DNA of 64,000 nucleotides from Tubulanus polymorphus (taxonomy: Eukaryota > Animalia > Nemertea). The stretch covers positions 7,720,485-7,784,484 of the forward strand of contig NC_134027.1 of the NCBI RefSeq assembly GCF_964204645.1, written 5' to 3'. Shown here piece by piece: positions 7,036 to 45,600 of this stretch. The translations under genes were made by a program, and so were the position numbers. The first letter of the stretch is position 1. Every line of letters starts with the position of its first letter. A model generated the notes under the pieces. That model had not been told where the DNA came from and did no database searches. It saw only the letters and a list, made by a program, of their open reading frames with translations.

Positions 7036-7120
<85 letters not shown>

Positions 7121-10587: not shown

Positions 10588-10618
10588 TGACGTCAGTTAT
10601 CATGATTCCGTGACGTCA
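10588..10618. promoter_or_regulatory. Two palindromic cAMP response elements in the PKA-RII promoter
   Basis: TGACGTCA at 10588-10595 and 10611-10618, about 200-230 bp upstream of the ATG at 10820. Confidence 0.75.
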
Positions 10619-10819: not shown

Positions 10820-13800
10820 ATGAGTTTTGAAATACCAGTCGGTTTGACAGATTTGTTGCAGGATTTTACCGTGCATGTTCTGCGAGAAAAACCGCCCGAT
10901 CTCATTCAATTCGCCGCCGATTACTTCAACAAATTAAATGACAATCGTCAACATCAGAATATCAGTGGCTGGGATGACGGTGGTGGGAAAGATGGGACGA
11001 AATTCATCAACGGAAAATCAGACTCTGCAGCATCCGAATCCGAAGATGATGAACCTATGCCAGGTCAGTAATCTTCCGGTAATCACATCATCCAATGATA
11101 TTTACATAACTTCATCAGTTGCAGGTGAAAATGTGATGTAGGTAATTTAGGATTAAGTACTGTTAATTTTAGTTAGTGAGTTAAGAATTGAAATGCAAGG
11201 TTAATCAAGAAAGTAGAAAAGGGACTTTAGGCTTAGCATGTAGTTCACCGAGAACCAGCGTCATTGACAATGTACCGCGGCAGAATGCTATTTTTTCTCA
11301 AAACTTTTAAATCGCCCTGACTATAAATCTCATTGCCAGCAGGGAATTATTTTTACATCTTAAATTTGTTCATTCTAATGACAGTTTTATCCTGAAACAA
11401 ATAGACTGGTCACTTAAGGTCACTGGAAGAATAAAAATCATTATAAGGTCAATATAGACCTACTATAGATGGTTTATTCATTGAAAGTGTGGTCAGCAAG
11501 TCACATAAATTTTAATAATGTCTGCTGGTGGTTTTGAACACAGGATCGAGAGCCTCTAGAGCAATGTGGATAGGCCTACAACGAACCGCTTGCTGGACTA
11601 GGCTATGTGAAGGTGTGGGTGTCCAGGAAGCCCATGCTGATTGTCCATTGTCCACTGCACTGCTGTTTGTCCACTTTTGGTATAAACATTTTTTTGAAGA
11701 AATATGAAATTTCTGAAAGGATCCAAAATTTGTTAATAAGCCTACAGTGAAACCTGCTTACAACGAACTCGAACACAACGATTCATCGGATATAACACAT
11801 ATGGAATTTTGTCCCAATCAAGACAATTTGATTTATTTCATACTGTGGATGAGCCTTTAACAAATTAGGCCTATTGGTTAATGAACATTTTCTGGTCCTG
11901 TGAAGTTCGCTGTGACGAGGTTCACTGCAGCAGTCGATATAGTTTGCGCAACAGGATTCTACCCTAGTATGAATATTATTACGCGTGTTAATTTAGTTCT
12001 AGCATTTTGAAGGCTGTATTTGGACATGGCGTAGGCCTATCGAATTACGATCTAATTCTAGTCAAACCAAAGTTTGTACAAGAAATTCAGGCATTCAGTC
12101 AGACCTGACTCTCTCACTGGAGTTTAGCTGTGGTGTATATGTTTTTCGTATGTATTTTTGAACGTGTGTAACGCTCTTTAACCCGAGGTTATTTTGTCGG
12201 TTTTCTTTGTTCGTCGACATTTCATAAATGTCAGCTCGCTGAAGTAACTCGGGAGTATATTTATCCACGGAAAAGTAAATTATTTTATTGCGGCAAAAAA
12301 TCGATTCTTATTGTTCTTGTAAATCGACTGTAGATTTCTGGCATGTGTATACATGCGTGTGAGTGTTTAAATTGACAGAGTAGTCGGATCTTCGGGGCAT
12401 CGACATCCAAAACAAATTTATTTTTTTAAGTTGTTTGTTGGAAGAATAGAAATGAGCCTATATATTGGGGTAAGACAGTTTGGGGCACCTTTCCGATATG
12501 TGGTGCTAGTGGTTAGGCTATATATCTGTGGATAAAAAATATCTGCGGCCCCTACCAGAGCGGATGTCAATATTGTATCAATGCTAATAATCACTTTGAA
12601 ATATATTGAGCTAATGTGATAAATACAAGATCAAACACCAAAATTATTGAAAATCAACCACCCTTCATAATATATTTGCTGCCCCTACCAGAAATAGAAG
12701 ATTACACTAAAATTAAGCTTAAGTTTCTGTTTTTTTGGGAGATGGAAAGCCTTGCTACTTCAGCAGCCACGATGTCATGAATGCAGCCCATTTAGAATTC
12801 CGGTATATGCAGAACACTGGTTAGGGATTGCAACCAAACCCCAGGGAACTACGCAAACTGCTACATCAGTCTGAGTCTTCTGCTAAGTGCACTCTGAACA
12901 TGACTGGCGGTAAATTGCTATACTGCTAGGAATTTATGGGTGGAGTCGGTTGGTCAGTTGGAATTCATAGAATTATGATTGTGCTATCTTGGTGTCTACT
13001 GTTTTCACCTCGATATCGATGATCAGAGACTATTTTCATTCGTAAAAGAATTCATTATCGCATTAGCCGCATCACGTTGAATACTTCCCGATGTAATTCT
13101 ATTTTATCTAAGACACCCTGTTAGTGTTATTTCAATAGCAGGTGTGCATTTTAATTCCCGCTTAATCAACTTGATGATGAACGTCCTCGTTGTCTATTTC
13201 AGAGTATCTGTGTGTTATTACCGAGTGTCTTATAAATGTGTCTTACCCGTTAATTGGTCGCAGGTTCAACTGAAGCAGCTGGAATAACAACTCTCCTCCC
13301 AGAGAGAGAGAGTCATTGCAGAAATAATAACTCTCAGTAGAGAACCTTTTTCAGAAAAAAAACTGAAACAAAAATGCGACTTGGTGATGATATAAACTCA
13401 GTAGGCCTATAGCTGGAGACATGGAGACAAATTGGCACGGAGCAGGCCCGAGTCAAATTTGGCCCGTTCACATGTAAACCACTCACTCGATACTAAAACA
13501 ATGCTTAAACAACGCGAAGTGAGTCACTTCCAGAACCTGTAGCAATTCAAACGCGATCATTTGTTCCGTGCTAAAATTTGGCTCGGCCTGGTTCGGAGTT
13601 GTTGGTCGGGCCAAGCAGGCCCATTTTGCACCTGGCATCTGAATGGTTGTTTCCGGGTCAAATTTAGCCAAGGCCAAAGATGCTTGTGTGATCGCGGCTT
13701 AGATCTGAAAGACTGGTCGCTGAAATAACAGCACGCGTACTCAGCAGAATTCCTTAGACTATTGATCTCAATACAAATTATTTTCTATGATAAAGCCTCG

Positions 13801-16800
13801 CTACACCAATGATTAGTTTTGTTACCATTTTGTTTAAATCAGTTCCTGGAAATGTTGACCATCGATAGCAATGAATATGTCAGGGAAATTCTCGTTATGC
13901 TCGGGACGAATTAGGCAATCGCCAATGATTTGCCGGAAAGGCCATGAGGACTCACTGCGTAGTGACTCACTAGGCAATTTTTAGGCAATTTTTCTGGCTA
14001 TTAAGAATTGGTGTCAGTCCTGTGACTGAGAAATAGAGTCTAGTCAACAGCATTTCAACAAGATTCCACTTTCAAATGACGCAATTTCCACTTAGTATAT
14101 AGCAGAGAAGGCACGAAGATATCATATGAATAGACAATGATGGTTGGTCTCAAGATTTCATTTCCTTTGTTCCTTTGCCTGTAATTTCGTTATCCCACGT
14201 CTCGTGGCAGTGCTGGCATTTTGTTTGATCGCTGGATTAAAAAGATCCAATTCAATTGGCGAAAATTCAATTGGTTGATGGCAATAAGGCGATTTTATTG
14301 CTGTAGAGCGGACACGCAGACGATTAGAAGTGCATTTTCTGGAATGGTCGTGGAAATCATGATTTTGGTCGCAAGTTCAGTGATCAAGGTAAAAAACCCA
14401 TAGGCCTAGTTGCTGATTAAGACATTCATCGTCTGACAGATTCGGAGTTTATGTAAACTCGATCATCGGAGAAACATTAAAGTTTTAGATAGAATTTAGA
14501 TAGACTCCTAGAAACTTGTCAAACGATAAATGTTTTAATCATCAACTCTGAACACCGAGATTGATATCGGTCTAGAGGAGTCAAGCTCGGTGATCTCGAT
14601 CGCTCGTTAGAATCGCTAGATGCCTACACAGATACGCTTAGCGATTTTTTCCCCAGAATTTTTGCCATTCGCCGCGATCAGCTACAGAGCGCCTCACCGT
14701 ATCGTAGCTGAGATACCATATCTTGATAATGATCGCGTTTATATCCTGATTCAGGTATGGGGGTATCTAAATGGTCGATCTTGTTTGTTGTTTAACCTTC
14801 CGTAGCCAAAACGGATGCTTTTTGAACAATGAGCCGATTCAAAGCTTAGGCTATGATATTGATCTGGTCTCCTTTTCCTGGTAATAGAAAATTGTGTCAA
14901 ATACACTAATTGGTCGCGTTTTATAGCCGCGATCACATGGACACAATTTGGCCCGGGCCAAATTGGCACGGATCAGGCTCGGGCCAAATTTGTCCCGTGC
15001 CTAATTAGAGAGCGCCAAATTTGGCCTGGGCCAAAAATGCTCGTGTGATCAGGGCTTTATGTTTCATGAGCTAACCTGAAATGGATATGATTCGTTGGAA
15101 CTCAATCGAATGTATCAACAAACAGCGTCGTCGAAACAGATGAATGGATTTATGTCTCCAATCTACAGCTCCGATGAACCAGGTGTGTTTAAACCGGCTG
15201 GTCACGTTTCATACCGCCGGTAATATAGTAGAATAACTGTCGCGGCTGTCAAAGATTCTCCACTCTTCTGATTGATGCGTCCAATCATGGATGGGTTTCC
15301 TACATGAGGAAAGTTGGCTACAGCCCTTCGGAAAATTGTACCTACTATATTTTCACAATTTAAGGCATAAGGGATCATTCATTTATTACGTACACATTAG
15401 GGGAGGGGGGAGGGATAAGTGCAATTGCGTACTCTAATGCTTAATGTATATGAAAAAATGGCCCATTTTGCATACAGGGGGTGCGGGGGGGGAGGGGTTG
15501 AAAAAGTCAAATTTCATGCGTACATAATAAATGACTGATCCCTAAGCAATAATGAGCAAGATTTTGACGGGCGCTCAAACTATAGAGGAGAACTTGTCAT
15601 TGTGAATAAGTGTAGCAGTTTTCGATGGTTCTTGAAGACTCGTTCTCAGCTCATGTCTTTAAGAGACTCTTCGTAGTCTACTTGTGTAACGTTAAGGTGG
15701 AACTCTTCCAGGTCTCGGAATATAGATTAATCAACCGTTTATGTAGACGGTGATGCTGTAGTGATACTTCGACGAAATGTTGTAATAGTGACGAATATAC
15801 GTTTTTCGGAGTTCGAATTCTTCAAACATTTCAATTAAATCTGAATGAACTTATCTCTTAAATGAATCAATTATTTATGGGAACTATAACAAGGATATCC
15901 AAGTAGAAGAATGAAAGTATTGTATATTTGGTGGGTGCTGTGATGATATATGGATTCGGGAGTCTAAAAATCCAGTTCAAAGTTCATCGAACACGAACTT
16001 ATTTTGACATTGGATGGAATGGTTTATTTCGCTCTAACCAAACGTGACCCACTGCTAGTCACGCCATCTAGTGGGAAAGCAGGTTCAGCTATAGGCCTGG
16101 ATTTTTCTCTAATTACTTATTTAGCCAGCGGGAAAACATTTCATTGATTTGAAAAATCTTAATCAACCGTAGACACGGAGCAGCTGTGACGGCAATTATG
16201 CCTATAGCGTGTTCATGATGGTGAAAAATCTGTCTCGCTCCGTTGATACATGTATTTTTTTCCTATCATCATCGATAGATATTTCAAGAAAAATCGAGCG
16301 TGAATATATAGCCTGAGGGGTGAGAATAGAACAGAACCGAACGCTGACTGGAGGAATGGAGAAAGGTAATTTCTCAGCTCTTCGCCGCACTGTTTTATAT
16401 TTTGATCAATCTCGGTGTATGATTACTCTGACAGATTGAATATCGCGCTCTAAAATGAGAAAGTCGGTCTACACCACGCATCTAGAAAATTGAAATATAA
16501 ATAAGGCAACTTATTCAGTATTCAAGATAAAATGTGAAAAATTAGTTGATGATATTTATCATGCTGTATTTTGTATTTGCCTCGAGCACAGGTTTATAGA
16601 ATTTGAAATGATGAATGGACTGAGACTTTCAGAGTCGATAATAAGATAAAATCCCACTATTTACAGATTAAAAGAATTTAAAAACCAGAATTTATTTATT
16701 AAATCTAAAATATTTAAAAGACACGACGTTTCGATCTCACCCTAGAGATCATCGTCGATGTTTGTTTGATAATTTAGTGGTTGTCTCGTCGTCACGAAGT

Positions 16801-22800: not shown

Positions 22801-25800
22801 ATTCCTAATTATGAAAAAAACGAAGGCTAAAGAATTATATCTTGTTTCTCATAATCGGCGGGTCACTTTTGTAAACTGCAATTTGTAATCAGTTCATTTC
22901 TCTAACGGCTGGGTATGTTATGGTTAGCCTGATCATGATTTTTGAAAAAAAGTTATGTACATGGTAAATAGGCGGCTGGCCAGGTCAGAAAAAAGAAACG
23001 ATTTATTTTAGCCAAAATGGTTGCAAACACTGAAGCCAGAGCTGCTGCACATTTTAGCCCACCTGGTGGATCCTGTTTTGCCAGAGATGGAATCTGCCAG
23101 ATAACATCATTAGGCCTCCCTTTTTTATCAATGATCAACAATCGGTCGCTGATGCTGGAGGCTCGTTGTCACTTGATAGTTCTAGTCGTTCAAAACGTTC
23201 ACGGGTTGTTTACGGCGTGGAAGGGAAAAAACGATCCATGTTGCAATCAGTCAAGATATCTGAAACGTATCGATATCAAACACTTTTCATCCGTTCATTA
23301 AATCTCTCTCCTCTCTGTTAAACTAGTATCAAGACCCACAGAATGTAGGAGATTTGGAACGAATTTTATTTATCGAGAATTGAAATCGAAATACTCTCAC
23401 TAGAGATAGCCCCTTGAATTCTGTATGTAGTGGGTTTTAAACTTATTCTCCGCATCGAGAGTGTGGACTAATCTGCCATTGTATCATTGACATTTCGTTC
23501 ACCTTTATGACGTGAAGTACTCCCACTCCTGATATGAAGAACGATTTGAGTTTTTGAAAACAATTGCCGCTGTTTGCGCGCAGTATTTTGTATATGATAT
23601 TCGCTACACATTAACCGCGGTATATATAGAGAAAGAAATATGGATCAATGATCATACACAACATTTATAATTCCGCTCAGACAACGGCGCGCTGTTGTTA
23701 TTATTTTTCACTGTTTCGTGAAGACGAAACTTTTCACCCGGTGCGACAGCTTGGCGTATACAGTACTATAGGTGGCTATAGTCCCGTGCGCGTATTGTGG
23801 TATTTATTAGTTGTTAACGCTGGTCTAATCAGAGTTGTTCGGTGTTAATTGCTACATTTGCTACTCGCTACCTCTGACTTAATACCTATAGCATATATCT
23901 GAGGAATCATGATACGTGTTTCAGTGCTGTGAATTATATACGGATTCTGTTCTTTTCGATTTGAATTGATCGAATCCGATCGTATTGTGATAGATACCGG
24001 GTAATTCGCGTTCATCGGATTACTGCCAATTTCAGCATGAATTTAAACTGTTGAAATTGATACTGATTTGACTTTTGGATCTGTCTCTGGAGTTATTTAT
24101 CTGTGCAGTCTAGATATGAGTTTTGGGAGTACACGCCCATTTCGTCGGGTTTCCCATGTGAGGTAACCGAACGCTTTATCGCATTTTATCGTATCGCATA
24201 TCTTTTTTTTTTACGTTGAAAGATGGGGGGATTGTGTTCTCGTTGCGGTGGGTACGACCTGTATCGCGTAGATGACACCCGCAGCAGCGGTGAACGTTAC
24301 GGACACGCTTCGACTGGAAATAATGGCGTAATAAAGAAATCGAATCGCAAAGACGACTACGATTATGACGATGACAAAGGCGTTATACAAGACCGTGACA
24401 AAGATTCGATATCGGTATTGTCGTGGGAAGAACGCGAACGTCAAAAACAAAAAAAGTCCGGCAATACGGATATTGAAATCGAGGATATAGGTATGTATAC
24501 GGACTGAGATATTCTTTGTCCCGTCATATTCACGTCGTCGATATCAATTCACACAGCTGAGACATTGTCGGAATTGTGACTTCTCAGTATCGATCTAAAG
24601 TTGTTTATTTACCAAAGTAAGCCTTAGGTTCCTTGCTTACAGTGATATTTTTAGTACGATCTTTGAAACATCAAGTGGCACGTATCCTACCTTGAGGGGA
24701 CAACAGAGATCATGTAAAAGAGATCCTCTAGTTTTACCTATTACTGGCCAACTTCATCATGTTGAAGATTTTTGCCAGGTACAGACTTTTGTTGTTAAAT
24801 CAGTGAGTCGATGAGTACTGATATGTGTCCTACCTGTATAACATGGTTTCACGAAGATTCGAACCCACAACCTCTCGGTTGTGAGTCAAACGCCTTATGA
24901 TAAGGTGTTTGACTCAAAGGCCTTGTCCTGTCCTGTGGCATGGTGGATAAGTTATCCAAATGGTGGATAAGTTATCCACCACACCACAGGACAGGACAAG
25001 GCCTTTTGGGCCTTCCTCGACACTTTTTATAACGAGGCAATCTATAGAGATGACATTATGTGGGCATAAATTTCAATGACTGACATGAATATTTCAGCGA
25101 GTGTAAAAACCTTAAGTCCCTTATAAACGTATACAATATGGCCCAGTAGGGCTATATTACTTCTGGATCAACTGTCACTGAAGGATAATTATGTTAGTGT
25201 TTGGAGTCTCCAAGGCTAATGTTAAGCCATTTGTCTCTTAATGATGATGAATATTGTAGCCCGAAACAGTAAGATAAGTTACACTAACTCGTATTAATCC
25301 CGCCCCGTGAGTGTTACCATCAAAACCAATCCATGTTATTCCGCGGTTTTCTGCTCAGCGACTCTTGAGGGAATCATGACCCTAAGTTTATACCCGCAGG
25401 TAACGTTCATATACTGCGTTTAGTAAATGCTATCGATGTCCTCTGTGGCTGTTTATGTCAAATAAAAAATTCTTCGTTTGTGATGAGACGCATGTATCGC
25501 ATATATCGGCTGTTTGGCTCTTTCAGGTTGTACTTATTCACCACACGTATATCTAAGCCATTCTAGATCAATCGACCATAAAAAGTCTACCACATGGTCG
25601 TTTACGGAATCTTATATTCTTTCGATTTTCGGCTGGTTGAACTTATTTTCCGAAGGGATGTGAATATTTAGCTCCTGATTCAGCTATTTCGGCAAATTTT
25701 CGACGAAATTTACCCAAACACAAAATAATACAGTTTCAGCCGATGTTCAGGTAATTTTTGAATGAACTTTTTCAAAGCTCAATTTTTATAGGCCTAGGCC

Positions 25801-28800
25801 TATCAAATGTATGGGTTAGTTATATGTCATGAAGGTCAGCCGCATGAAATGATTTTCACTTTCACTAGCATCTTACAGTCATGAACTTACTGCTGAAAAG
25901 ATTAGTCAGTGAACCTTGCATTGCAGCATGGGATTGATCGGAAGTTTGAAAATCGTCGTGGGAATTTCCTGATTTAGATTGCCTGTCAGACATTCACTGA
26001 CAACTCGTCAGTGGTTCGAATTAAATTTGTATGAGAGTTACGTTTTAACCTTTTGTGGCAGCAAAGTTCAATGTATAAATCTCAAGACAATGTTGTTAGC
26101 GTAAAAGAATCGAATAATTTGCAGACCATCTTGACCTATGGCTTCTGCATTTGCAAAGTGATCTAATGTAAAAAATGAGTTTTGTCTGTTTTTATCCACC
26201 ACCAGCGAAAAAAAACCCCATGGAAATCTCAGGGTTTTTTTTCAACCCAGAGTCAAATCTTAATTCACAAATGTGTAACTGGGTCTAGAACTTCAAGCCT
26301 TCAGATTTTTAGCATTTTATTTTGTGTGAATATCATGCAGTATTTGACCTCCCATGCATGTCGAGACATGAACTTGGATAACCTGCACCTGTGGAGACTG
26401 GGTCCGTTGACTACTGGGTATGTTCTTTTGTCCATGGAGGCCTCAGGTAACAACAGAATCTGTAGTTAAAGGAGAAAAACGTATTCCATAAGCAGGAGTC
26501 GATCCTCTCTGATCTACTGTTTATTAATCAACGGGTAGAAATTAATTCATTTTGGGTAGAAATTCATTCATTTTGAATTATGATCAACATTTATGCTTCC
26601 AAAACTTTGACATGATGGAATTTTATTTTCCGCGAAATGAGTACTCTATGTCAAGAAAAATTGAAACAGCAAAATAGCGTGATCTCTGTTCGAATGCTAT
26701 AGCTCTCCGTAAACTGAAATCGAATGAAATAATTGATCGGGATAGATGCTCGTTGTGGGTTGCGCGTATGATTTAACTAGTCATTACGCTAATTTTGTCG
26801 TCGTAGTCGTTGTATCGCCTGCTATTCATCTAATTATGTGATCTTGCGTATTGTGGCTTCGGGATCTGATAATTTCCTGCCGCGATTTCGCAATGTCATC
26901 GAGTATTACCTTATTTCCGACTGCAAAATCTATTTCCACAACTCTCTCTCTCCAACACTCTCTCTTGATTCAACTAATGCAGTTGATAATCATTCAATTA
27001 GAATTTCACCCATGAAGTTGAATCAAATAAATGAATGAACTTATGAATGATGACGATATCTTGCGAGCCTCGAGGTTCATGAGACTGCTGCCACTGCTGT
27101 TGCTGCTGTTGCTGCTGCTGAGGAAGACATCGCTCATTCATTACGCGTGAGCTTTTTTTTGCGTCTGTCTCCTGCAGAGTATTAATCTTGTGATCAGCGT
27201 TTAATCAAGTTAGGCTTGTAAGTTTCTGGATCCCTGAAGAAATGAAAAAACCAACTTCAATTTAATCATTCAACTTCACTTTGTCTCGTGCCCCTTTCAT
27301 CATTCCTTCCCTTTTTTTCATTGCTCATCTTTTCTTGTACTCCACGGAAGGTCCAACTGCAGGGTGGCCACTGACCTAGAAAACCAGGAAAACCCCGAAA
27401 GCCCAGGGAATCAGAAAATCTAGAAAAAAAATGGGGAACTCTGGGAAGTTTTACAAATAAACCTGGAAATCTTAGGGTAATTGGATATGTAACAGAAATG
27501 GGTTCCTATATGAATACGTGATTCATGAAAAATGAATGAATTCAACATCATTAGATTCACTGAGGGAATTTATAATGGGCGCAAAGTGGGGTCAGCCTGG
27601 ACCCATTTCTACCCCTGTCAACTCTAAACCCTAAACCTATTCTCAAGACAGTACACATGCTGTCTCTGTAAGGCCCTATTGAACGTTCGTTCTTCAGCTC
27701 GTCTCTCTTCAGTGTCACAACCACCCCTACTAAAAACAATAAACAGTTTCGCTCTGATAATAGACATGAACATCACTCAATAATGAGCTGATGCGATTTG
27801 TTGTCTATTATCTATTGTCATGGTAACCGATCTGTCTGTATTAAACAGTTGATGTTTGCGTTATCAGTAGCTGACGCCACCTATCAGCTATCAATTGAAC
27901 CGACATTTAAACAGCGGTGATGACAGAAATCCTCTATGTATCGATTTGATCTTATAGATGGATAATAGATGTTTATTCAAACACTGTAGGAACACTTCTT
28001 TCTATATGTGAGATAGTGCGGGCCAATGATCTGTGAAGTCAAAATTAAACATCTTTTCACCTTTTGTCTCGCAATCTTTAACTAGATTTGAGACTGACAT
28101 TTTTCTAAGGTCAATATAGTTGGGACCTAAATGTCTCGTTGTGTTGGTATTAAGGTCATCTAATCAATTCTAAAGAAAACTTACCTTCGGAAGTTTTATT
28201 TGGGTCAAAATAAGAGTTTATTAGTTGACGGGAAAAAATTCACTGCTAGACATACGCCAAGCATTCTGTGTATCGGAGTTCTTATTCTTTAAAACATCAA
28301 AGCATGTCTGGTTCTTCTAGTGATTCTGATTTTGGTATGTACTGATTATCATGAGTTATAAGGGCTGGAGGATGGAATATATATTGTAGTTTTTTTCTCT
28401 TACAATCAGTGTACAAGTTAAAACATGTCTTCTATTGATTTGTTTCTGGCTATGGCTCCATCCATCCTGAAATGAATCAAGAGATTTAACATTGAATAGT
28501 TTGTTTATTCGCTTCATTGATTTAGGAAACGTATTTAGTTAAAGAATTAGCCGACTTGAGATTTGTCGAAGAACTTATAGTGATCTATAATTTGAAGATC
28601 CAACCTTTTTACCCATGTTTATTGGATGATCAGAAGTCTCCAATAAACCTCCCAGTTGTAAATAATTGAATTGTAAAATTCTGTTAGCTCTTATCAAGTG
28701 GAAAACAATCATTAGCAAATATTTCCTCTGATTAAACTCTGTCTGCTGCTGCCATCTTGTGGAGTTGATTGAAACCAACTGTCATGCTAGTGTTGGTATC

Positions 28801-31800
28801 TGCAGCAAATATTCTTATTGTCAGAGACCATTAGGGCAGAGAGATCGTCGGAACAACCAAAAAAAAATCCTCGAAAAAGATATATTAAGTATAACATCCT
28901 ATTTGACACAGATCTCTTGACTCTATCTGAGTCTCTACTGGGGTCAATCTTTTTTTTAAATCACTGAGTTTTATGAATAATTTTTAGGAAACACTCTATA
29001 AAGATTCTCAACTCTGTATGATGGTCAACTTTTGTGAAATTGTTAGCCTAATGTGGCCCCACCAATACTGAGTAAGGTGGAATTCAATATGCTTCCATTA
29101 GTGGTCACGAAAAATAGGGTAGAATAATTTACAATCCATTATTGAATTATTAATTCAGATTTAGGTGTGGATGTTTCAGTTTGAGTAATATTCAGTTGTC
29201 TTGTGCTGCAGTACATAGCATAAGTCCAGAGAGCCTGTTGTGTCATTATACCCACTGAGCTATTATTACTCCTTTGATCAATTATTGTATCGCATGCCAC
29301 ATTATTGCACTTCAGCTAGTGTGCTGATGTGGTAATGGACATATAAGGGTTAAACTTTGATGACTGTGCGACTGACTGTCGTGTGAGTGTGTGTGTGTTG
29401 TAGTAGAGCAGGGACACTGAAGATCGTACAGACTGTAGTAGTGGCATCAGAGATCCGCGGTCGTCGCTTGTCGGATTTCTAATCCAGCTAGTCAACGATG
29501 TAGGAAGGATTTAGTTTTTTTCTTTTTTCGAAAACTGTTTTTGACGCGCACGCACGCGTGTATTGCACTAACGACGCGACGGTATTCAAAAAAAAGTTGA
29601 CAACAAGGAATATTTATAATATGTTATGGGAGGATTATGTTCAGTTTGTCAACATCAAAGTTCACAGCGTGGTGTAAGTGCAGATAACTCTGATGATAAT
29701 AACGCCATGGGTGCTAAGTTGACCAAGTTGCGATTCAGTAAAGACTCGACGAATTCAGCCGGCAATAATTCCGATAGTAATACTAATAGTACGGATGAGG
29801 CTATTCATGCGAAAGAAGGTTGGTCGATCTTTTGGAGTTTTTGTCGTTCGTGCTACCCCCGGTATATCATTCTCCTGTCACTTGCTTGATTTAGTCACAT
29901 TCCTGAATAGAAAATGGGCACAAAGTATGCGGATTAGATTGTGCCGCTCATTTTTTGTAGTAGAATATTCGTAAATTCTGCGGATTCCATTTATAAATCA
30001 TTGATCGTCGGTCTTCCGGCAACAGCGACCCTGGAGCTGGTTTTCGGGTTTTGGTACGCGATGCTTCGATAGCGTGTTCAATAAATCATACTATTCCCCC
30101 CCCCCCCCTGGGTCATGACAGAATCTGAGAACTTATATGGGCTTCATGAACTGATAAGCAAATCAGGCAGTGATCCATGCTACCATTACATTACATGCCG
30201 TAGGATTCTTCATTGACGGCAAAAAGTTTGCATCAATTATGTATTTTTGAAGATTAGAGATATGATAGTTATTAGTTGCTTTTTTGATACATCAAATCAG
30301 AAAGTTGCCAGACACAGAATTTTGTACAAAGGGAACCAAGTTAGTAAAATCAAAGCTACGTAAGGCTGATTATATTCGAGGATTTTTCAAATAACACTCA
30401 ATACCAGGATCTACTTGACATAAGCCGCGATCACACAAGCATTTTTGGCTAGGTTAGGCCATAGCTAACCGTTTAACGGGTGTGCCCGTGACTGTTCGAT
30501 CCGGGCCGAATTTGGCCCAACCAAAAGCGGGGCCGAACCTGATTTTGGCGCGCATCAATCGAATCATTACGTTTGTATGCCTAGCTTTAGCATTTGATAG
30601 CATCGAGTGAGTGGTTTATGTGTGAACCCGCTCTCTCTAATCAATTTGCAAAAAATTTGACTAGGGTCTGATCCAGGCCAAATAGTTTCCGTGTATGATC
30701 GTGGCTATAAGCTGGTATACAACTAGTTGTTGAAAGTGCCAACTCGCAATTCGTTTTACGTCGTGGAATACATATTTATGTATTTTCTAGTTTCAAACAT
30801 ATGCCGACGAATAAATATTCTTGACATATCAATGCTGACAAGTGTGCTAATACGATATCCCGCTAATATCGATTGAGCGATGCCTTCAGTCGGTTTCGAG
30901 GGCGCTTCACGCGCGCAAACTCGTCGCCTGAAACGCTATATAGCCAATTCATAAATGATTTATCAAAATGGATTTCAATTAATAACTCTCTCGTCGATAT
31001 GCCGTAATAATATTGAATTTCGAGTAATGCATCACATGTAAATTTCACAGCTTTCAATCCGCGGTTAATAGCCATTTTGTGCACGCACACTTCAGATACC
31101 GATGCATGTCGCGGCGAATAGGTTCAACCCTTGAAATGCCTCGTATTGGAATATATATATTCAATACTGCTTTTTGATATTACTATTTTTCTGCTTTTTC
31201 GATATTATCATTGACGTTAATTTTGATTTTTCTTTGCTTCTTTTCAGAACCACCGAAAAACAGATTTCAAAGGCGAAAATCAGGTAAATGAAAAACTTTC
31301 ACTGTTTTAACCGGATGATATCTTTTGATTACAGCCAAATATATAACAAATTCCCTCTTCGAAAAGAAAAGTTACGGCAAAGCCATTTCCTTTTATGGGC
31401 TTTGAATAAGACTTCACCCAGATCCTAACAGAATCGTGAGATAGATGTGATGATACTGTTTGAATTTAACTGCTAGAATCGGGTACACGTCACATCGAAT
31501 AGCCGCGTATAGATCGAGAATTATCGTCATTAAACGAACTCGAATTAGAATAAAATTCACATCACCATGAATTCAGCGGCCGGTCGTCGGTCGATCGGTC
31601 GCGAAACGCATCATTCAAACTCGTGTCGGAACGGAAAATCGGCCATGTTTTTAATTAACGATTGAAAATATTCTCCGCCAACCCGATAGAAATCAATTCA
31701 TCGATGACAGCTGCGACGCATCCACCGCACGCGTTATATATAGGCTAACAAATAGGTTTTGAAAATATCAGTCGAGTCGTATTTTGTTCCTTTTATCAAC

Positions 31801-34800: not shown

Positions 34801-36601
34801 GGGCCCAGGCTAAATTTGGCATGACCAAAAACGTTGGACCAGGCCCAAACCAGAATTTAGCACGGGTCAAATTATTTCATCTGAATTGCAACTGGTTCGG
34901 GAAGTCTCTCACTTTGCTTTGTATTAAGTATTGCTTAGTATCGAGTCACTGATTTACATGTGAACGCGATCTCTCTTATTTGACTCGAGTCTGATCCGAG
35001 CCCATGAGCCAAATTCTCTATGTGTAATCACGGCTATAGACACTGTATCACCTTGGTCAGTCAACACACACCAGCATTTACATGTGTCTTAAACAGTATT
35101 TTCATTCCATGGTATTTTCAGTGTCAGCCGAACGTTATGATCCCGAAGCGGATGAAGACGAAGGCGATGAACAGGTAAGTGTGGAGACCTCCCCTGTTAG
35201 TATACACCCTCCTCGACGCCGTCGCCGATGACATCATCTCTTTAGACGTCTTACTAACGACGTCGTAGCAGTTAGATTTTCGCATTAACTTTGATCTAAC
35301 GTAGGCACCCCGTGGAAACAATCTAACCAATCATGATATTTCACGTTCTGATTAGCTAAGACCGTCTACTCGGGTGCATTCGGTGGAAATAGTAATTTTC
35401 TTTCGTCGACGTCGTCGTGCCCCGCAGAGCTAACGAACAATCCCTTTAACCCATCGTCAATATCCTGGCTGTAAACGCTGTAACATCGCTAGCATCGGTT
35501 TACAAATTCAACCTTCGTTTATAATTGATGATCATATTTTGCCTAGAATGGGCTACGCTCACCGGGAAAATGGCCTTCATTTATATTGATACCCTATAGC
35601 TGAAGCTCGAGTCTGCTATCTACCATGGTGTTTTGGCCGCATGGTGCTTGGCCCTGATATGACTGTCGAACGATGGTATAAAACTGGGGCCAAGTTAGAG
35701 CATGGATTCTAAGTCCATGGTTAGAGTTAACCAGTGGTTAGTTGACATAGAGACAATTAATAGTTCGTTGTTACTACGGTATTTATTTCCCCCCACCGCC
35801 CCCCCCCCCGGTTATCTTAAACCAACTCTTGAGCAACTGGTCCCTGGACCATTGGGTTCCGCAATCGGTTCGCATTCAAATGTTAGTTGAATGAATGAAA
35901 AATAACGATGAAATTGATTTAATGAAACAAGTCTAATTTCTCAAATTGATGAACGCGGCGAAACTGCAGCCTGAATATTGTCATAAGAAGAAGCCGATTC
36001 TATGTGGATGATATAACTATCGTTTAACTACAACCACTGATTGATGATTTACCTACGTATCACCCCCTGTTTAATGATCATAAAACCTGTGTGATATTCG
36101 ACAGATTGAAAACCCGTTCGAAATGATGATGGATCGCGCTAGACATTAATCAGACAATGAGATATCTGTCTCTATCTCTCTCTCTGTACAGCCCTCCTGC
36201 CCGCCCACAGTTATTCATAACCTTAAATAGACGTCGGATTTTTATATAAACTGCACAATTTCATCACAAACAAAGCCGGGTGTATGTTTCTGATGAGATA
36301 CACGAGGGATCGCAACTGAACTGAATGATTAGATTTTTGATCTGTCAACGTCGCGATATTTTCATTAATTCTCGACGAGTTTTCCTCATTTCAATTAAGC
36401 CGATGCACGTTTTTCTTCTACTTCAATGTTTTTCTTCTTTCTTTTTTTCGATACAGAAAGTTTATCCGAAGACGGACGAACAGCGAAAACGATTGAGCGA
36501 AGCGACGAAGAACATCCTCTTATTCAGGAGTTTAGACAATGTGAGTGTACAATGCGATTACCCGGGAATTTCTTTGTCCGTCTCTTCCTCCTCAAACATT
36601 G

Positions 36602-36664
<63 letters not shown>

Positions 36665-39600
36665 CTTATATATGTTAGAAACTCGTCGGCATTTCATTAA
36701 ACTTTTTAAAAAAGCGTGTCAACTCTTCACATTGATCTTCTATTGTTCCTACGCGTAATAATTGTCAAAAACCAATTGACACCTTTTTTACTTAAAGAAA
36801 TGATCTCCTTACACTTACTCCGCCCAAAACGAAATGAACTTCTCTCCCTGCTGTTCCCATTGTTCGTTCTCATTTACCTATTGACATTAAAGCCGATGTC
36901 GGAGACATTTTCTACCATTTTAGTCGCTACGACTCTCCGTAATTCTTGAAAACTGTCTCGGGCAGATTCTTTATTAGTGTAGAGACGCGAAAGATCCGAT
37001 GATAGATTGCGCAGTGTTAGCTAATTTAAATTGATTACTTTCTCGTTGATTCGCTTTCCTAATTTCTTGTTTGTCGATTGCATCGGAAGTGAAAAATTGC
37101 CCTGAACACGTTTGAATGGCGGTTCGGTTGCCTCAGTCACATTTCTCCTAGTATCAGGCAGAGAATGTTTTCATTGTCAGATACGTATCTAGTTTACGGA
37201 TAAACTTGAAGAGTATGAGATTTTGAAAGGCAATCGAAATGTAATAGGAGCCTCCAGTCAGCGTATGTTTACCGGGTTTTGCCTCGTGTTTCTGCAGAAT
37301 GATAATTAAAAAATTGTTGTTGATGGTATTTATCTAAGCTTTGGGGCCCTAGAGCTTAGATTTCGAGAACATACAAAAACAGCACAGAACATGTTTAAAA
37401 ATCAGTCTTTTCGATTTTCTTTTTCAGCAACAAATGCACCAAGTAATCGATGCAATGTTTGAGAGGAAGGTAACTATATCTTTTTTATCTTATTCTATTT
37501 TCTGTGTTCGTAATCATCGCACTGCCGTGTGGCGGTCACTACTGATTTGTCGATGTAGCTAGTAATGTAATTTATTCGTTCATCACATTGACGCCTAACT
37601 AGATTTTTCCTGTTATATATATACATAACGGCAGTTTCTGCTCTCTGCCATCTACTACAGCCAAAATTGATGACTGCTGCCAAGATATGACAATAATAAT
37701 TTCCTCTCTGAATAGCTCATTATCTGAATGGATCTGATCGTACACTTGTGAAGTATTTTGAAAATTAGATCGCTCTGACATTTCTCGGTAGATAGTGCCA
37801 CAATCATGGCTGGTATTCTGGTATAACCATGCCATTACTGATAATAGAATGCGTATTTTCTTCATTGTCTTGAAATCAATTTGAGAATTTTTCCGAGCGA
37901 CCATTTGGCGAATAAATAACAAACATACTACGTCAATGTTGCGCTCTGGATAGTACATCTTGCGGTACTTGTAGCATAAAAAAGATTAGTTAGCAGTGGC
38001 ATTGTAGGGCAGTCGTGTTGATCTTAGTAATGCGCTTATCAAGTGGTCTGGATCGATTTTGGCTGGCTAAGAGCGGGCTGACACAACCTCGACGATATAT
38101 ACATTATGTTTAACCAGCAATTTAATAATGTACATGAGGGAAATCATGGCGTTCTCAGGATTTGAATTATTCTCGACATGAAATGTGCGGAATTCAAATA
38201 TGGCTAGGTGTTCGCAGCGGCTACCTCTGCTTAACTAAAGCGTAATGTAATTCCTGTGAACTACGACAGTTACAGCAGTGTGTCAACAGTTGCTGACTAT
38301 CTTTGAATGTTAGCAGGGTACGGCTGTCCCTGATGATCGTTTTCCTTCCCCCTTGTGGTATGAATAGATATCCTTAAACTTGGGTCTAGTCTCCAATAAT
38401 GAGAATAGATTTGATAACAAAAATAGGGTCGCCACTCACCTGGAAATCAGGAAATGGTTAGGGAATTTTGTAAAAAGCTAACAATCGAGGAAAAATCTGG
38501 GAAATTTGTTGAGTTTGCTAGATGGTGCCTTTAATCAAACAGTTTCCGTCCAAGTTTTACGTATTTTACTTCGTTAATTGATTGGATTCTTAGCAGATCA
38601 AGTCAGGGAAAACAAAGTGCACATGTCAGGGAATAGTCAGGGAAAAAGCAAGTCGAATAAAAGTGGCAACATGTATGAATCAGTTTGTTAAATAACGCAG
38701 TTATCAGGTTTTTCAAATAGGGTTTCTCGAGTAAAGGGTTAACGCGGATAATTTTCTGCGCATATGGCGTTTCTCGTGGCGGTGTCTTATTTTAATAGTC
38801 AGACTTTAATTCGATGAACTAAGATTCAGTTTACAGCGATAGAAGATCCCGGTAATGGAGCTCATCAGGTGATCATATTAGATATAACGTCGACGGTCTA
38901 TGAATCATTTGTCGGCGGCGTGTGCCATATTTATAAAGACTGGTATTATGAATGGCCCTCGTGTTAATTGTATTTATCAAATTGTCTTCCACTTTAAGTA
39001 ATAAAAAAGCTTTTAAAAAGAAAATACTGCAAATATAAGTCATTTTTAGGATCAACCGTGTTGATGGTCCTGAAAATAACAGTCTGTTTGCTCTTGGTGG
39101 CACAAATTGTAACCGCTGGATATACACAGCTGGTATTTTGTCATTAGGCGAGAAATAGGGGTTCATTAGTCCGTCCACTCTGCCGTTTAGAAGTACTGGG
39201 AGAAAATGTTCAAAAATTTCAATGAATTTATCCCCATTCTACTTATCGGTGCTTGGCCTTAATTCTAGATAATGACGTCATTGGGAAAGTCCTTCGGTAT
39301 TCAAGTCGCAAATCCCAGAACAAATCGTTTTTTTGTGGTCAAAAGTAAAACTGTACTCAGTTGATCCTACTGGACCCATGGTCCTTTATTCATGCATAGA
39401 TATGATAGAGCTTATTCGTTTCAAAAAAAATAGGAGCGTAGAATTTTGTCCGAACATTAGTAGAAGTTCGATGGAAAATCTTAGTCATTGTGCGGGGGGG
39501 AAAATAATTATGCTAATTTTTCTCTAGTTAGGCTAATTACTCGATACGAAAAACATCTAAACTTAGTTAGCATTTTGATGTCGAATGAACCGACGGGATC

Positions 39601-42600
39601 TGTCGGATTCGCCACCGATTGATCGGTTGGGTATCGGTAGGCGTTGTTGTTTATCTCGGATTGTTCCGGCATTTATCGACTTCTATTCTCGCGGAGACTT
39701 TCGACATGACTTTTTTTTATTCGTCGTTCGATGCGATCGACGCGCGGCGGTCGGTCTGTATTCGCCGTGCATCTAATGCGCCCCGAACGAGCCCGGATAA
39801 TTGGATCTTGCTGACGTCCATACATCTGTCTGTTGGTTGTCATCTCGCGCTGATATGAAAAGCCCGGATGGCCGGTAATGCCGTCAAATCATCACCGCTG
39901 ATGATAATACAGCTGTTTAGTGGCTTGTGTACATGAGGTGATCAGAAAGAATACTTCATTTGTCGCCGAATCGAACGGAGCCCTTGATCAATTCCATTGT
40001 CTCGAGACCACAAAATTCGGTTTGTGTTTAGGGACGTCTGTTGGTGGCATGTAAGAGGCTGAACTTACTGAAGTCATCAGTCTTTTACCGGTCGTATCAA
40101 TCCAGGATTCGTCGGTCGTCGAAATCTTCTTGAAGTATCAAAGACACTTTCTTTGACTTTGATTGCGCATACGCAGATCGCTCTAGTCTGCAAGAACCGT
40201 TTGAAATACCGCAGTGTGCCACTCACTACCGTATATTGGTTGCTGTGGGGATGATGTTGATCATGGACTATGTAACTAGTTTTCAAATCCAAGCAGTAAT
40301 GAAATGATAAATTATCAGTTGGGAACTGAGAGGCATGTCATTTGCCCTTTGTTTAAAGAGCAGAAAGACATTAGCGACTACGTTTAACAGCGAGTCTGCT
40401 GGTCCGCCGTGAACTTTGGTATTTTGTCATTCAACAGTTGGAAATGCAGTCGCAGTCGTTTTTATCTCCCCGATGACAAACATTTGCTTAAGGAGAGATA
40501 AAGCTTTTTTAAGTCTTCCAATATTTAAGAATATGAAATATTCCGTTGGGAAATACGTTTTAAATATTCTGATCTATTCAGCAGATTGAGGGATGAGATC
40601 TCCGTCTTTTGTTTTCGATTTATTTTTTCTATTTTCGCTTACCGGGGGTACGATGAAAAAAGTAAGCAGCGGGGAATCGAAAATTGAATTACAGGGGACG
40701 CTTTGATTTATATATTTTTCATGCCGCGACCACATTCGTGGTTTATTAACGTGCATTACGCTTTCGTGAAAGCGATGACGACTGCGCGAAATATGGTTTG
40801 CTCTAGGATGCATTACGCCGGTGAGGCTATTTCAGGTCTTACCGTTCATTCGTTCGTCTGTCTCGCGGTATGGTAATTCATATTTTACACACTTAATAAA
40901 CCACGAGCGTCTCCAGCGTCATTAGTGAAACAAATCAAACGGAAACTCTCTCAAAGTGTGAACTCAACTCAACTCAACTGAAAGCGTAGAATATCGGTAT
41001 GATTCCGGCTGATATTAGATATTCTAACACTAAGGGGTTGTAGATCTACACCTTGCAACTATACATAATCCCTTTTTTCATCAAATGTTTTACCGAATCA
41101 TAGGAAGGAATATTTTTAGGTTTTCTTTAGATGAGTGTTGCATCCTTGGATGTATTTCAACTATTGCTAAACAACATCCTTATTCAGTTGGTATTTGTAA
41201 TTATTGTCATGAATATGAATAGTAAACAAGGGTGAATCAGTGCCCTTATTCATTTTGTCAATAACGATATTTGGTGCATTTCTCAGTAGGGAGTGCAGGC
41301 TATATTGCCTTTTTAGACATCAAAATGCCCGTTTGGGATGCGACTTTGAAATTGGCCTCCGGATCTGCCCTGTATATCTACATTTTTGGGGCCTTTAAGC
41401 TCATTTTTAAAATAAAGATATTTTCATTTCTTTTGATTTCAGGTAACGCCTGACGAACATGTAATTGACCAAGGAGATGATGGAGATAATTTCTATGTTA
41501 TTGACACGTAAGTTTACATTTAGTCACATCCTGTGGCCAGCGTTTGCTTGCTCTGAATAATTATTAATAACTCAAACCGGTTTACCGTGCTCTTATTTGA
41601 AACCTGCTGATAATCATTTCGACCAATTATTCATTCATTGAGTGCTCTTTATACAGGTCTCTCTCCCCTCTCGCCTCTCCCCCTCTCTCGCTGTTTCTGC
41701 TCCCCTCCAGGGGACTGTTATCCCTCTTTCTTAACTGTAGCCCTCTTGTCATATTTCCAACTGCATTGAGATTACAAGCCTCTCATTGTTTCTCAGCAAA
41801 GAAAACTGCCTCATTTTTACCTGCCCTCCCCTTTTGATCTAACAGAGAAGAAGCATTTGAATGTAAACTTTTTTAGGTATCAATTTTATGTTTTTCATTT
41901 TTCCGTAAAATTTCAGGGCAAGTTGATATTTTCAGGAGGGGTGCACACGCTCGTATCTACCTGTGATGTATGTCGGCTACCACGCATAAAATGCATCCTC
42001 ACTGAAATGAACGTCGTGTGTCCCTTATGTCCTTGCTTGCCTTTGAAAGACTCGCGCTCACGTGGTCCCCCTATTCAATCAGTCCCTCACATCCCACACT
42101 CGCGCCTTTTAATCGAACCCACGTTTAATCAGCCTATACTACAAACTAAACTATAATTTCATAGGGTCGGTAAGGTTGATTATGAGCTGTATATTGTGCT
42201 GGCTTTTTCCACTGCGTTGAACATAATTGTTATCGTTCTCCTCACGTAGTCGTCGTCGTCAGCTACTCCGTCGACGTCGAGAACTGGAAAGCTTCACGGA
42301 GAGGATTTAGCTTTGATCTTGAAAAATGATGTTTCAGCTACAGCGTTGTTACCCGGGAAACCCTGGTCAATTCAAAGTGCTAATCGAAATTGGATTGCTC
42401 CATATTAATGTGGAATTAAAAAGTAACGACTGCGACGAGCTAATCTTTCGTCATCCCGGCGCGAGATCGGCGATGAACGTGAAAGCCTCCATCGGTGCTT
42501 CAGATCCACGTATTACCGTCAGATTTTACTGAATGTTCAATGTTCGTTTTATCCAAGTTCCAGGATACTCGAATCTTGGGTATAGTCGACTGTATACTGG

Positions 42601-45600
42601 ATATTTTCAACATGTTTCTGCTAACTTGTAGCTGTAACAAGCCAATATATTAGATTAAAAAGATTCTGTAAATTAGCTATCACAAGATCAGCGAGGCCTG
42701 GCTCAGACCAGAGTTAAATTTGGCCAGTGCCTAATTATAGAGCGTGTCAATCGCTAAATAATGCTGTGACAAAGTGAAGTGAGTCACTTCCAGCACCAGT
42801 AAGCATTCACACGCAATAATTTGAGCTGAAAATTTGGTATGGCTCAGGTCTGACGTTTTTGGTATGGCCATAGGCATGGGTCCATTTGGCACCCATAGCA
42901 ACGGTTGGCCTTGGCTCATTTGGCACATAGGCCAAAACCACTTGCGTGATCATAGCTGTTTCGTTCCCTGTGGTTTTGTGAGTCAAACAATAGATAAACA
43001 GAGAATGAAAAAAACTGGTTATATCGTTATCGAATCTCAAATGATGAAACCCGCAAAGAGAAACCTTTCATTCTTATTTTCATCCTATTAAGCGCAAAAA
43101 GTGATATTCTCAGGTACGGGATTTTTTGGCCAATTCTTGGTGCCAGCAAATCAACAGGCGAGATTCTTGTAATCTCCGAAAGTTATGCGCGTAGATCCGT
43201 CGATCCTCGACGGATTGAGAAATAAATGAACGGGATCGCGATATCCAGTGCGCTGCCATGGCAACAAAGGTATTTCCTGCTCGGAGATTTTGCCGCTTTT
43301 CCACAAGTCAAAGTCGGTTCATATGACGATGTCATCGGCGGCGGAGGTATACAACCAACGGTCTGTGTGTCGACAACGCGTATCGTATCCCTCAGGTGAC
43401 TGGGGAATACTGACGTTATCTCTGCGTCTCTTTCTCCTTGTTCAGAAAACAATCAGTTTTTGGTACGAAGCACCTAATCATCGTGAGAATTCCGCCCGTG
43501 AGGCAGCGCGCGCGCCCGCGCCAACACGAAACGACAAGAACGAATCAATCTAGAAAAAAAGACCAGGACCCGAGCGCTATTAAGTATTCTATTTCCGGCG
43601 TTGAAGAGGAAATAACGGGTTTCTCATGTTTTTTTACGACGATTCCCATTAGTTACGGTAATAATAGTTTTCCATCGAGGCGTACCCTCGGACGCGATGT
43701 ATTCTGTAAACTGTAATATTGCCCCGAAGCCCTGGTTTGCTTAGCGATGCTATTCATTGCAATTGCGATATTGTCGTTTTTGCACCAGGTGTGAAGCAAC
43801 TTTACTCCAATCACTGTCACGGTAAATCATTTCTATCGTCGCCCGCTCACAAAAAAATCTTTAGCTCATTGCGACCAAGCAGATCATTGCATTTTTTAGA
43901 GTATGTTTTTCAGTTTGAAAACTTATGATCCCTCGAAGCTTTACTTCAATTTTCAATCATAACGTTATATTTTATCATGTACTTTTAGGGGCACTTATGA
44001 TATTTATGTAGAAGTTGATGGTAAGCCTAAATGCGTAGGACAGTACGATAGTCAAGGCAGCTTCGGTGAATTGGCTTTAATGTATAATATGCCTCGTGCT
44101 GCAACTATCATTGCAACATCGGAAGGAACTCTTTGGGCTATGGTAAGTGAAATCAAAAATATTTGTGCTCTGGGTGTTTTTGTTGGTGGGAGAGTAAGGA
44201 ATGGCTCTGATTCTGGGGTTTTATATGGAATCAGAAGCAAAAGTTCCTTTCATAGCTCGCTTGCTCGTTTTAAATTAACCGAATCAAATTGACGAAAATA
44301 ATCACGGATTAGAAATTGAGAAATGCTGCAAAGTTGACTTTTCTCACACGCATCGATAAGATTTCAGCTACAATTCGAATTTAACGGCTTCATTTGCCTG
44401 CGCAGAATTCTCAGAACAATCACCGCTTCGAAAACAAATCTGTTTGAAATATACCTGAAACTTAAGTCTTTTAGATAATTTGCTTGACGAATTGATAATT
44501 GCTTGACCTTAAACACTTGATAGAAACAAAAAATATTTATTCGATTTCTGCGATCGATTATTGAAGGATATTTTCGTCATCAATTCTACGCTCTATTTAC
44601 TAAGACATTTCGAACTACCCTGCAATTTCATCGCGGTAATTAATTTATGTAGCTTGTTTTCGAAGAAGCGCCATTTTCAGTCGTAACTACCCAATATTTG
44701 TAGCGTTGCGTTTTTCAAAGGGCGCATGTGCCCCGCGGCAAAACTGATGAACTTTGATGATCAAATAATATAAGCGGATGTTACGCAGAAATTTGCAATA
44801 CGACTGTGTAGTTCTTATAGACAGCGTCATCTTCTCTTGAGCATAGTGTTCGCTTACACTTCTATGTCTTGAGATATACATTTATTTTTCATCCCTTGAC
44901 AGCTGTCTTCCATTAATGAATGGCGTTATGTTGTAACGGTAATCAAAGTGTCGTGGAAACTGAAACGTATTCGTAGAGTTCAGTACTTTCAAGGTTTTTC
45001 CAATAGATTCTAATGGATGCTATTCGTTCGAATATTCTGTAGATTCACGGGGTGAAATCTTTATGGCCTCCTCCATAAAAGATGGCAGGCTCCTATTTTT
45101 CGTATCACCTCATTTCAGAGCAATTATCAGCATTGATAGAGTATTGACATCCCTGGTAGGGGCAGCAGATATTTTATTTGGGGTGGCTGGTTCTCAGAGG
45201 GGTGGATATAAAAATGAAAGGGATGGCCCCCCTTCCAAACCTGTTGTGGAGAACACTGCTATGATATCATCTTATTGCTTACTAGAATTTGATGTTTGAA
45301 TCTTGCCTGAATATGATGTCATAGGGAGATAAAGGAGTCAGCTATGTTTTAATTGTAGGGAATCTTTGCCACACTTAAGAATCGTCGCTAGTTTTGCGTT
45401 TTGAATCAATGATTAAAATGATGATTACAAATGGTAGTCTAATTAGACCGACGCCCGCTGGATACGTTTTAATCAATCGTTGCTTTAATTTACAGGATCG
45501 AGCCACGTTCAGACGCATCGTATTAAAGAACGCTTTCAATAAACGCAAAATGTACGAAAATCTCCTCGAAAATGTACCAATGCTCAAAACATTAGATGTA

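Follow-up and report, generated by a model that had tools for sequence, protein, structure and literature searches.

The window analysed here is a 64,000-nucleotide stretch of Tubulanus polymorphus DNA (contig NC_134027.1), and its forward strand carries a gene for the PKA type II regulatory subunit (PKA-RII). This identity, already proposed in the original prediction, is borne out by a substrate-type RRxS inhibitor site (RRKS, spanning exons 2 and 3) and by two cAMP-binding domains, recognized from a PF00027 match on exon 7 and from a spliced model that matches RefSeq RII isoform X1 in all but one residue, where the model donor is 3 nt short. The canonical first coding exon (10820-11063) encodes the D/D (RIIa) domain (Pfam PF02197, E = 1.8e-15) and a linker, ends in a phase-1 donor at 11063, and gives a product matching the N-terminus of XP_074645339.1. 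All first exons share the acceptor at 31248 of exon 2 (31248-31283), which bears the RRKS site. The common exons 3-13 (35122-51786), containing the two cAMP-binding domains, form an open frame and lie at 35122-35174, 36457-36540, 37428-37469, 41443-41507, 43989-44142, 45496-45597, 49061-49135, 50648-50713, 51084-51141, 51249-51317 and 51656-51786.

Mapping the isoform proteins to the window places the coding parts of two annotated alternative first exons within intron 1, that of RefSeq isoform X3 at 16356-16365 (three codons plus 1 nt) and that of isoform X2 at 28304-28334. Because both map there in the same phase, the expectation that intron 1 holds first exons replacing the D/D domain is upheld by the annotation itself. 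The same intron contains two further frames with MGGLCSxC starts, hereafter exons A and B, which would use the acceptor and phase used by X2 and X3 but are absent from all three database isoforms of the gene. Exon A (24223-24490) starts MGGLCSRC close behind an in-frame stop and runs for 89 codons plus 1 nt to a phase-1 donor (G|gtatgt, a hexamer identical to that of the X2 donor); exon B (29626-29818) starts MGGLCSVC and runs for 64 codons plus 1 nt to its own phase-1 donor (G|gttggt). All coordinates originally given for these frames were verified, as was the fit in phase of the A, B and D/D donors to 31248, and the common exons yield an open product of 375-400 aa whether preceded by the D/D exon, A or B. 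Seven of the first eight residues are common to A and B, codon 7 encoding R in one and V in the other, and the shared codons differ at four positions (codons 2, 4, 6 and 8), as first noted, only synonymously. The accompanying description of the two frames as unrelated beyond this motif holds for the most part, but scattered identities do occur after residue 8 (26% overall). Neither A nor B has a Pfam match to the D/D domain at E ≤ 0.1, and this domain is confined to the exon at 10820. An origin by transposition or recent duplication was considered and rejected: no repeat pair links the two starts among the 20 of 41 direct families and 25 of 47 inverted pairs listed, and DNA contigs covering A and B are at single-copy depth (36.7 and 32.4, respectively).

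Judged from these features, A and B are probably alternative first exons of PKA-RII that exchange the D/D domain for a disordered linker with a predicted myristoyl and palmitoyl anchor. MGxxxS is the N-myristoylation consensus, and in both frames the initiator Met is followed by Gly2, with Ser at position 6 and Cys within the first 10 residues. The obvious alternative is that they are chance intronic ORFs, or that one is real and the likeness accidental: intron 1 offers 303 phase-1 donors in ATG frames, A and B are unannotated, and searches with A returned no homologue (none of 36 candidates from a word search at E ≤ 10; three phmmer matches only, apparently spurious, to internal stretches of unrelated long proteins). 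The numbers make this quite improbable. There are 132 ATG ORFs in intron 1 that reach a phase-1 GT, five of which start Met-Gly, and A and B are the only two with MGxxxS and two Cys. In 300 copies of the intron simulated with an order-4 Markov model, two such ORFs never occurred together (0/300) and one occurred in 4/300, while a pair sharing seven of eight residues arose in 2/300; the motif was picked after being seen, so these figures somewhat overstate its rarity. The four synonymous differences in eight codons fit selection on the peptide, and starts with Met-Gly and Cys recur among D/D-less RII isoforms elsewhere, where Lineus and Lingula also show some likeness (see below). Coding statistics favour A, which ranks first among the 303 candidate donors (34.2 bits) and is the best coding segment on either strand of the intron (41.7 bits against 17.0 for the next of 535 segments). 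We regard exon A as likely to be real.

Exon B is also probably real, with less assurance than A. Its coding score of 2.2 bits does not stand out from the background (n = 67; top 17.4, median -12.5), its shifted frames scoring -15.5 and -83.2. On a crude matrix both donors are modest, A scoring 4.8 (rank 18 of 303) and B 4.4 (rank 21) where the 11 donors used for training reach 7.9-13.6; even the annotated X2 donor, however, falls below 3 there. Scans for CpG and TATA did not discriminate A or B: local CpG observed/expected ratios peak at 1.55-1.83 at A, 1.44 at B and 1.37 at the D/D promoter, and many other 500-nt bins are equally high. A feature overlooked in the original prediction is a second in-frame Met-Gly start inside B, at Met28 (29707-29818, context gccATGg), from which B would have a Met-Gly and basic N-terminus without Cys. 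It is conceivable, if unlikely, that A alone is a live exon, with B being a copy that has decayed or goes unused, or else one translated mainly from Met28 into a myristoyl-plus-basic form. Codons 1-27 of B score -2.6 bits against +6.2 from Met28 onwards, an 18-codon out-of-frame upstream ORF (29621-29677) overlaps the first ATG of B and stops before Met28, and the B donor has T at +3; against this, seven of eight residues have been retained despite four synonymous changes and the frame is open from Met1 to the donor.

Could these frames belong to something other than RII? Unspliced, both run to a stop (94 aa for A, 87 aa for B), and small proteins with dual acylation are known, smAKAP among them, so that A and B could be stand-alone acylated proteins or the first exons of a nested gene; the nearest Atlas cluster to A, herpesvirus UL11 (score 0.76), is a lead only in the same direction. 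This is improbable, as the coding score of B turns negative past its donor (-7.5), the A donor lies five codons before the stop and in the phase required by exon 2, and there is no other strong plus-strand coding segment between A or B and exon 2. An amphipathic R-binding helix of the smAKAP type is also absent from A and B, whose best-moment windows are hydrophilic with one or two large hydrophobic residues compared with four in the D/D helix. A single-sequence structure model of A gives low-confidence coil and one short helix (pLDDT 53).

Alternatively, the exons could be real and their proteins not lipid-anchored, if translation starts elsewhere or if an upstream phase-0 exon splices onto the AAG before the ATG of A. 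A T-run and AAG do precede this ATG, and motif-based prediction of myristoylation does not always agree with experiment (PMC7373427). Every known upstream donor is nevertheless phase 1, no AG follows the in-frame stop that lies three codons upstream of the B start, and the motif geometry of both matches that of an experimentally tested regulatory subunit, Toxoplasma PKAr1. We consider this reading very improbable.

Transcript searches bear little on the choice of first exon, and neither reads nor contigs connect A or B with 31248. Three sequencing runs (X1-X3, distinct from the RefSeq isoforms) look like DNA: their cover of the introns is even, and the 15 joints listed, out of a set with 154 more, include none between exons. 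A fourth, X4, is RNA-like and derives from a diverged relative; at neither 88% nor 80% did any of its sequence match A, B or exon 2. An RII contig from this run, 83-86% similar over coding exons, connects exon 4 with exon 7. It starts within exon 2, some 19 nt short of that exon's end; since this is downstream of the first-exon junction, the contig is uninformative on the first exon.

How might such isoforms be made and what would they do? Both frames present Met-Gly-x-x-Cys-Ser-x-Cys behind an in-frame stop, lack the D/D domain and are in frame with exon 2. Transcripts starting inside intron 1 would splice A or B to 31248 in the manner of annotated X2 and X3. By established chemistry, Met would then be removed, Gly2 myristoylated, and Cys5 and Cys8 palmitoylated. 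GFP fused to the first 15 residues of Toxoplasma gondii PKAr1 goes to the cell periphery, a targeting lost in G2A or Cys mutants (PMC6152992). Like the predicted A and B isoforms, PKAr1 is a regulatory subunit without the docking domain and has Gly2 with two nearby Cys, although at positions 5 and 7 rather than 5 and 8. The lipid-anchored N-terminus of PKAr1 is the one described for its gene, whereas A and B would each be one alternative start, out of five or more, in an animal RII gene whose products include an AKAP-binding form; the same paper contrasts acylation with the use of AKAPs “as is the case in metazoans” (PMC6152992). Another precedent is smAKAP/AKAP19, whose myristoyl and palmitoyl anchor recruits PKA to the plasma membrane (review, PMC13025221). 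Unlike A or B, whose anchor would sit in the R chain, smAKAP is a protein in its own right and uses a helix to bind the RI D/D domain.

Without the D/D domain, AKAP binding and the usual dimerization would be lost, and each regulatory subunit would be expected to hold one catalytic subunit at the membrane as an R:C heterodimer. The earlier suggestion of a monomeric subunit is supported by analogy with mammalian RIIβ, in which the inhibitor site and two cAMP domains form an R:C heterodimer after D/D deletion and activate at an approximately tenfold lower cAMP concentration (65 vs. 584 nM; PMC4497662), though those constructs are engineered and soluble, unlike the predicted isoforms. Animal R isoforms without D/D have themselves been published, for C. 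elegans kin-2 (review, PMC9692727), which differs in being type I, and for decapod PKA-RI and RII (PMC12608923). They are presumed to be incapable of tetramer formation and AKAP binding, their function is left open, and in the available text of both sources myristoylation is mentioned for the catalytic subunit only (PMC9692727, PMC12608923). The original prediction, which knew of no description of the feature in metazoan RII genes, overlooked these published isoforms; our literature search met with no paper in which they are read as lipid-anchored.

In the standard view, animal PKA is a tetramer positioned by AKAPs through the D/D domain. To our knowledge, regulatory subunits bearing their own lipid anchor have been held to be an apicomplexan trait. 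If the isoforms are real, the choice of first exon would toggle one gene between a tetramer placed by AKAPs and a heterodimer that anchors itself and responds at a lower cAMP threshold, giving D/D-less invertebrate R isoforms a testable role and offering a testable answer to cAMP compartmentalization in animals with few AKAPs. Replacing the exon that precedes the inhibitor site with a direct anchor to the membrane could moreover be a recurrent design among invertebrates. We give about even chances to the wider proposal that a second targeting system, free of AKAPs, is widespread in invertebrate PKA-RII genes, where alternative first exons swap D/D for a built-in membrane anchor and so give monomeric, more cAMP-sensitive, membrane-bound PKA. 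Nemerteans, gastropods and brachiopods would use dual acylation, amphioxus Cys clusters, and corals and decapods basic amphipathic or polybasic starts. Many invertebrates may then tether PKA to membranes without anchoring proteins, the apicomplexan design would have been reached independently, and D/D-less isoforms of open function would be explained.

The feature is not peculiar to this gene, a point missed in the original prediction: acylation-type N-termini at the first-exon junction recur in the RII models of other invertebrates. The RefSeq isoforms compared, which include XP_076469393, XP_070192799, XP_041347766, XP_023932345 and XP_035675653, are automatic gene models without a functional label. 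The chief support for the proposed anchored isoforms is comparative: annotated D/D-less isoforms with a Met-Gly start and Cys are found at the same junction in Babylonia, Littorina, Gigantopelta and Lingula, and a Branchiostoma (amphioxus) isoform switches there to a Cys-cluster start; no such isoform was found in the bivalve, cephalopod-like and bird clusters. Among 64 distinct D/D-less N-termini, seven start Met-Gly and five of these have Cys in the first 10 residues, representing three independent types: MGCLFS (Babylonia, Littorina), MGQCFDC (Gigantopelta) and MGISCS (Lingula). The majority (57/64) lack a Met-Gly start, which counts against the proposed anchors. Two D/D-less RII loci on intronless environmental contigs (L010 and L018, 2 of 80 loci) have a Met-Gly-Asn start behind an in-frame stop, which speaks for the proposal, but lack Cys, which speaks against it. 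By comparison, Met-Gly starts occur in 0/62 distinct D/D N-termini, and Met-Gly with Cys in 9/1453 random ATG frames of the window. A role in calcineurin docking, considered on account of the IEIE stretch ending A and PTITVT in L018, is unsupported (loose matches 2/72 against 3.2 expected; strict matches 1 against 0.4 expected). Past the motif, the RefSeq model sequences are unrelated to A and B, so that either homology or convergence could underlie the resemblance. Weak likenesses do exist. The best match to A among 56 N-termini is at its 3' end, to the exon end of isoform X2 of another nemertean, Lineus, an isoform with a CCC cluster (single-test p = 0.01, failing correction for 56 comparisons), and the closest N-anchored match to B from Met28 among the same 56 is Lingula X2 (score 15 vs. 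7 for the next). Isoform pairs switch 7-14 residues ahead of RRxS in 13 of 14 cases.

The PKA regulatory subunit gene of the window comprises 13 exons on the + strand, with a Pfam RIIa domain in the first exon (10820-11063) and a first intron of 20 kb. The spliced model equals RefSeq XP_074645339.1 (Tubulanus polymorphus) except for one residue, with the donor placed 3 nt short, and the gene is an ordinary RII. Its database cluster has three members, X1 with the domain for docking and dimerization (D/D) and X2 and X3 without it. Since X2 and X3 map to phase-1 first exons within intron 1, ending at 28334 and 16365 respectively, alternative starts there are already an annotated architecture. Two further ORFs of this intron, A and B, are missing from these three isoforms. 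An unannotated candidate first exon of 24 codons also lies at 15110-15182 (phase-1 donor CAG/gtgtgt, coding score 9.3), and its end resembles the D/D linker. A pair of full TGACGTCA palindromes of CRE type lies at 10588-10618, upstream of the D/D exon, with 23 bp between them (three in the whole window vs 0.8 expected); cAMP feedback on the canonical promoter would be possible.

The original prediction described A and B as starting MGGLCSRC (A, 24223-24490, + strand) and MGGLCSVC (B, 29626-29818, + strand), and coordinates and starts were borne out in the window sequence. Each start lies behind an in-frame stop and each ORF ends at a phase-1 GT donor, in frame with the RII exons as had been claimed, giving open products with exons 2-13 of 400 aa (A) and 375 aa (B). 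The shared codons do differ synonymously, at four positions. MGxxxS with two cysteines, a motif chosen post hoc once A and B had been seen, occurs only in these two among 132 intron-1 ATG frames reaching a phase-1 GT, and in no frame on the reverse strand of the intron. Two such motifs arose in 0/300 simulated introns, and a pair with 7 of 8 residues identical in 2/300.

In a codon-position model trained on the other exons of the window, A reaches 34.2 bits, the highest score of 303 donors, compared with 9.6 for the held-out D/D exon. The score of B, 2.2, lies within background (top 17.4, median -12.5); its alternative frames are strongly negative and its score drops beyond the donor. Donor scores are low (A 4.8, B 4.4, from a matrix built on 11 sites), and in the same matrix the annotated donor of X2, which shares its hexamer with A, scores below both. 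Three sequencing runs behave like DNA, and in a fourth, from a relative, the RII contig begins downstream of the first-exon junction. We regard A as quite probably a real exon and B as probably one, with less assurance. Shortly after A, at 24916-25006, follows an inverted repeat of 43 nt with 93% complementarity; it sits in a bin of high depth and is probably a small mobile element.

A broader pattern, seen among isoforms annotated in other invertebrates, is both stronger and of greater interest; it is based on automatic gene models. From 390 proteins, picked by similarity and by our choice of 30 clusters, 307 were full-length RII-like sequences that begin with Met and carry the inhibitor site; D/D is present in 222 of them and absent from 85. 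The latter reduce to 64 distinct N-termini, some probably truncated models. Seven begin Met-Gly, five of them with Cys within the first ten residues; none of the 62 distinct D/D N-termini begins Met-Gly. The seven starts are MGCLFS (two Babylonia genes and Littorina), MGQCFDC (Gigantopelta), MGISCS (Lingula X1), Met-Gly plus a basic stretch (Lingula X2) and, seventh, an alligator model. Generality is limited by the way the sample was picked and by the clusters read from mussel, oyster, scallop, abalone and birds, where no such start was seen. Of 14 isoform pairs, 13 switch 7-14 residues ahead of the inhibitor site RRxS, the exception being an amphioxus pair sharing one more exon. In Lineus and Gigantopelta, Glu and Lys are swapped at the first residue that the isoforms share, consistent with a phase-1 junction. 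Among 56 N-termini, A finds its best local match in Lineus X2, at the exon end (uncorrected p=0.01).

Other D/D-less starts take different forms: CxxCC in amphioxus, an internal CCC in Lineus X2, basic and aromatic residues in corals (P0293, P0294, P0379, P0381) and polybasic stretches in decapods (P0304, P0319). The 80 environmental loci include two contigs without introns whose D/D-less RII begins Met-Gly-Asn, behind a stop and without Cys; two more loci start FPCL plus basic residues. The basic/aromatic or polybasic starts (corals, decapods, L037, L038) could permit membrane binding without myristate. Environmental locus L018 has a PxIxIT-like PTITVT after its Met-Gly start (385-470), a motif showing no enrichment across the set. 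L026, L027 and L028, one within a 45 kb contig, are intronless D/D-less RII-like ORFs with a short N-terminus and an RRSS/RRTS site, possibly retrogenes.

Within 29621-29818, an out-of-frame uORF overlaps B, and B contains a second in-frame Met-Gly start at 29707 (gccATGg); because of these, it could yield two N-termini with different anchors. Both types, Met-Gly with Cys and Met-Gly with basic residues, are present in Lingula as separate isoforms, and Lingula X2 is the best match of this internal Met28 start among the 56 N-termini. None of the three members of the Lingula cluster (P0152, P0236, P0237) has D/D, and two of them begin Met-Gly; the annotation may lack a D/D form, or such a form may be clustered elsewhere.

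MGxxxS is the myristoylation consensus. A and B would be transcribed from their own promoters and spliced to exon 2, with Gly2 predicted to be myristoylated and Cys5/Cys8 putatively palmitoylated; given expression, acylation is highly probable. Pfam finds no D/D in either, and an AKAP-like helix was not found. Because D/D is absent, such isoforms would fall outside the canonical RII type. The experimentally tested model is Toxoplasma PKAr1, which also lacks a docking domain and carries G2, C5 and C7; its residues 1-15 direct GFP to the periphery (PMC6152992). RIIbeta deleted for D/D forms an R:C heterodimer, activated at 65 nM cAMP vs 584 nM for the tetramer (PMC4497662, in part). By analogy, A/B isoforms would act like apicomplexan PKAr1, and a similar shift in cAMP sensitivity might apply to nemertean RII.

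Older work reportedly concerns D/D-less fly RI isoforms, possibly one with a Met-Gly start. D/D-less R isoforms of C. elegans kin-2 are assigned "other, unknown, functions" (PMC9692727), those of decapods are reported with dimerization and AKAP binding left undecided (PMC12608923), and a study of AKAP evolution left out R sequences without D/D (PMC12083921). No description of an acylated animal R isoform was found in the literature searched, which covers few subscription journals, nor in the accessible portions of PMC8339350, PMC13466552, PMC8560092, PMC13082882, PMC13025221 and PMC7373427.

In five shark species (P0031, P0053, P0057, P0063, P0075), RIIalpha isoform models of ~603 aa additionally contain the mitochondrial carrier domain PF00153, which may stem from read-through of an adjacent gene. 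In the window itself, an intronless Myb/SANT-like ORF (46729-48054, - strand; PF13873, E=8.8e-14) is nested antisense in an RII intron. Domain searches place an EPL1/PHD finger gene upstream (241-8400, + strand), which we take to be BRPF-like, and a protein kinase gene downstream (~57000-63500, - strand), presumably DSTYK-like.
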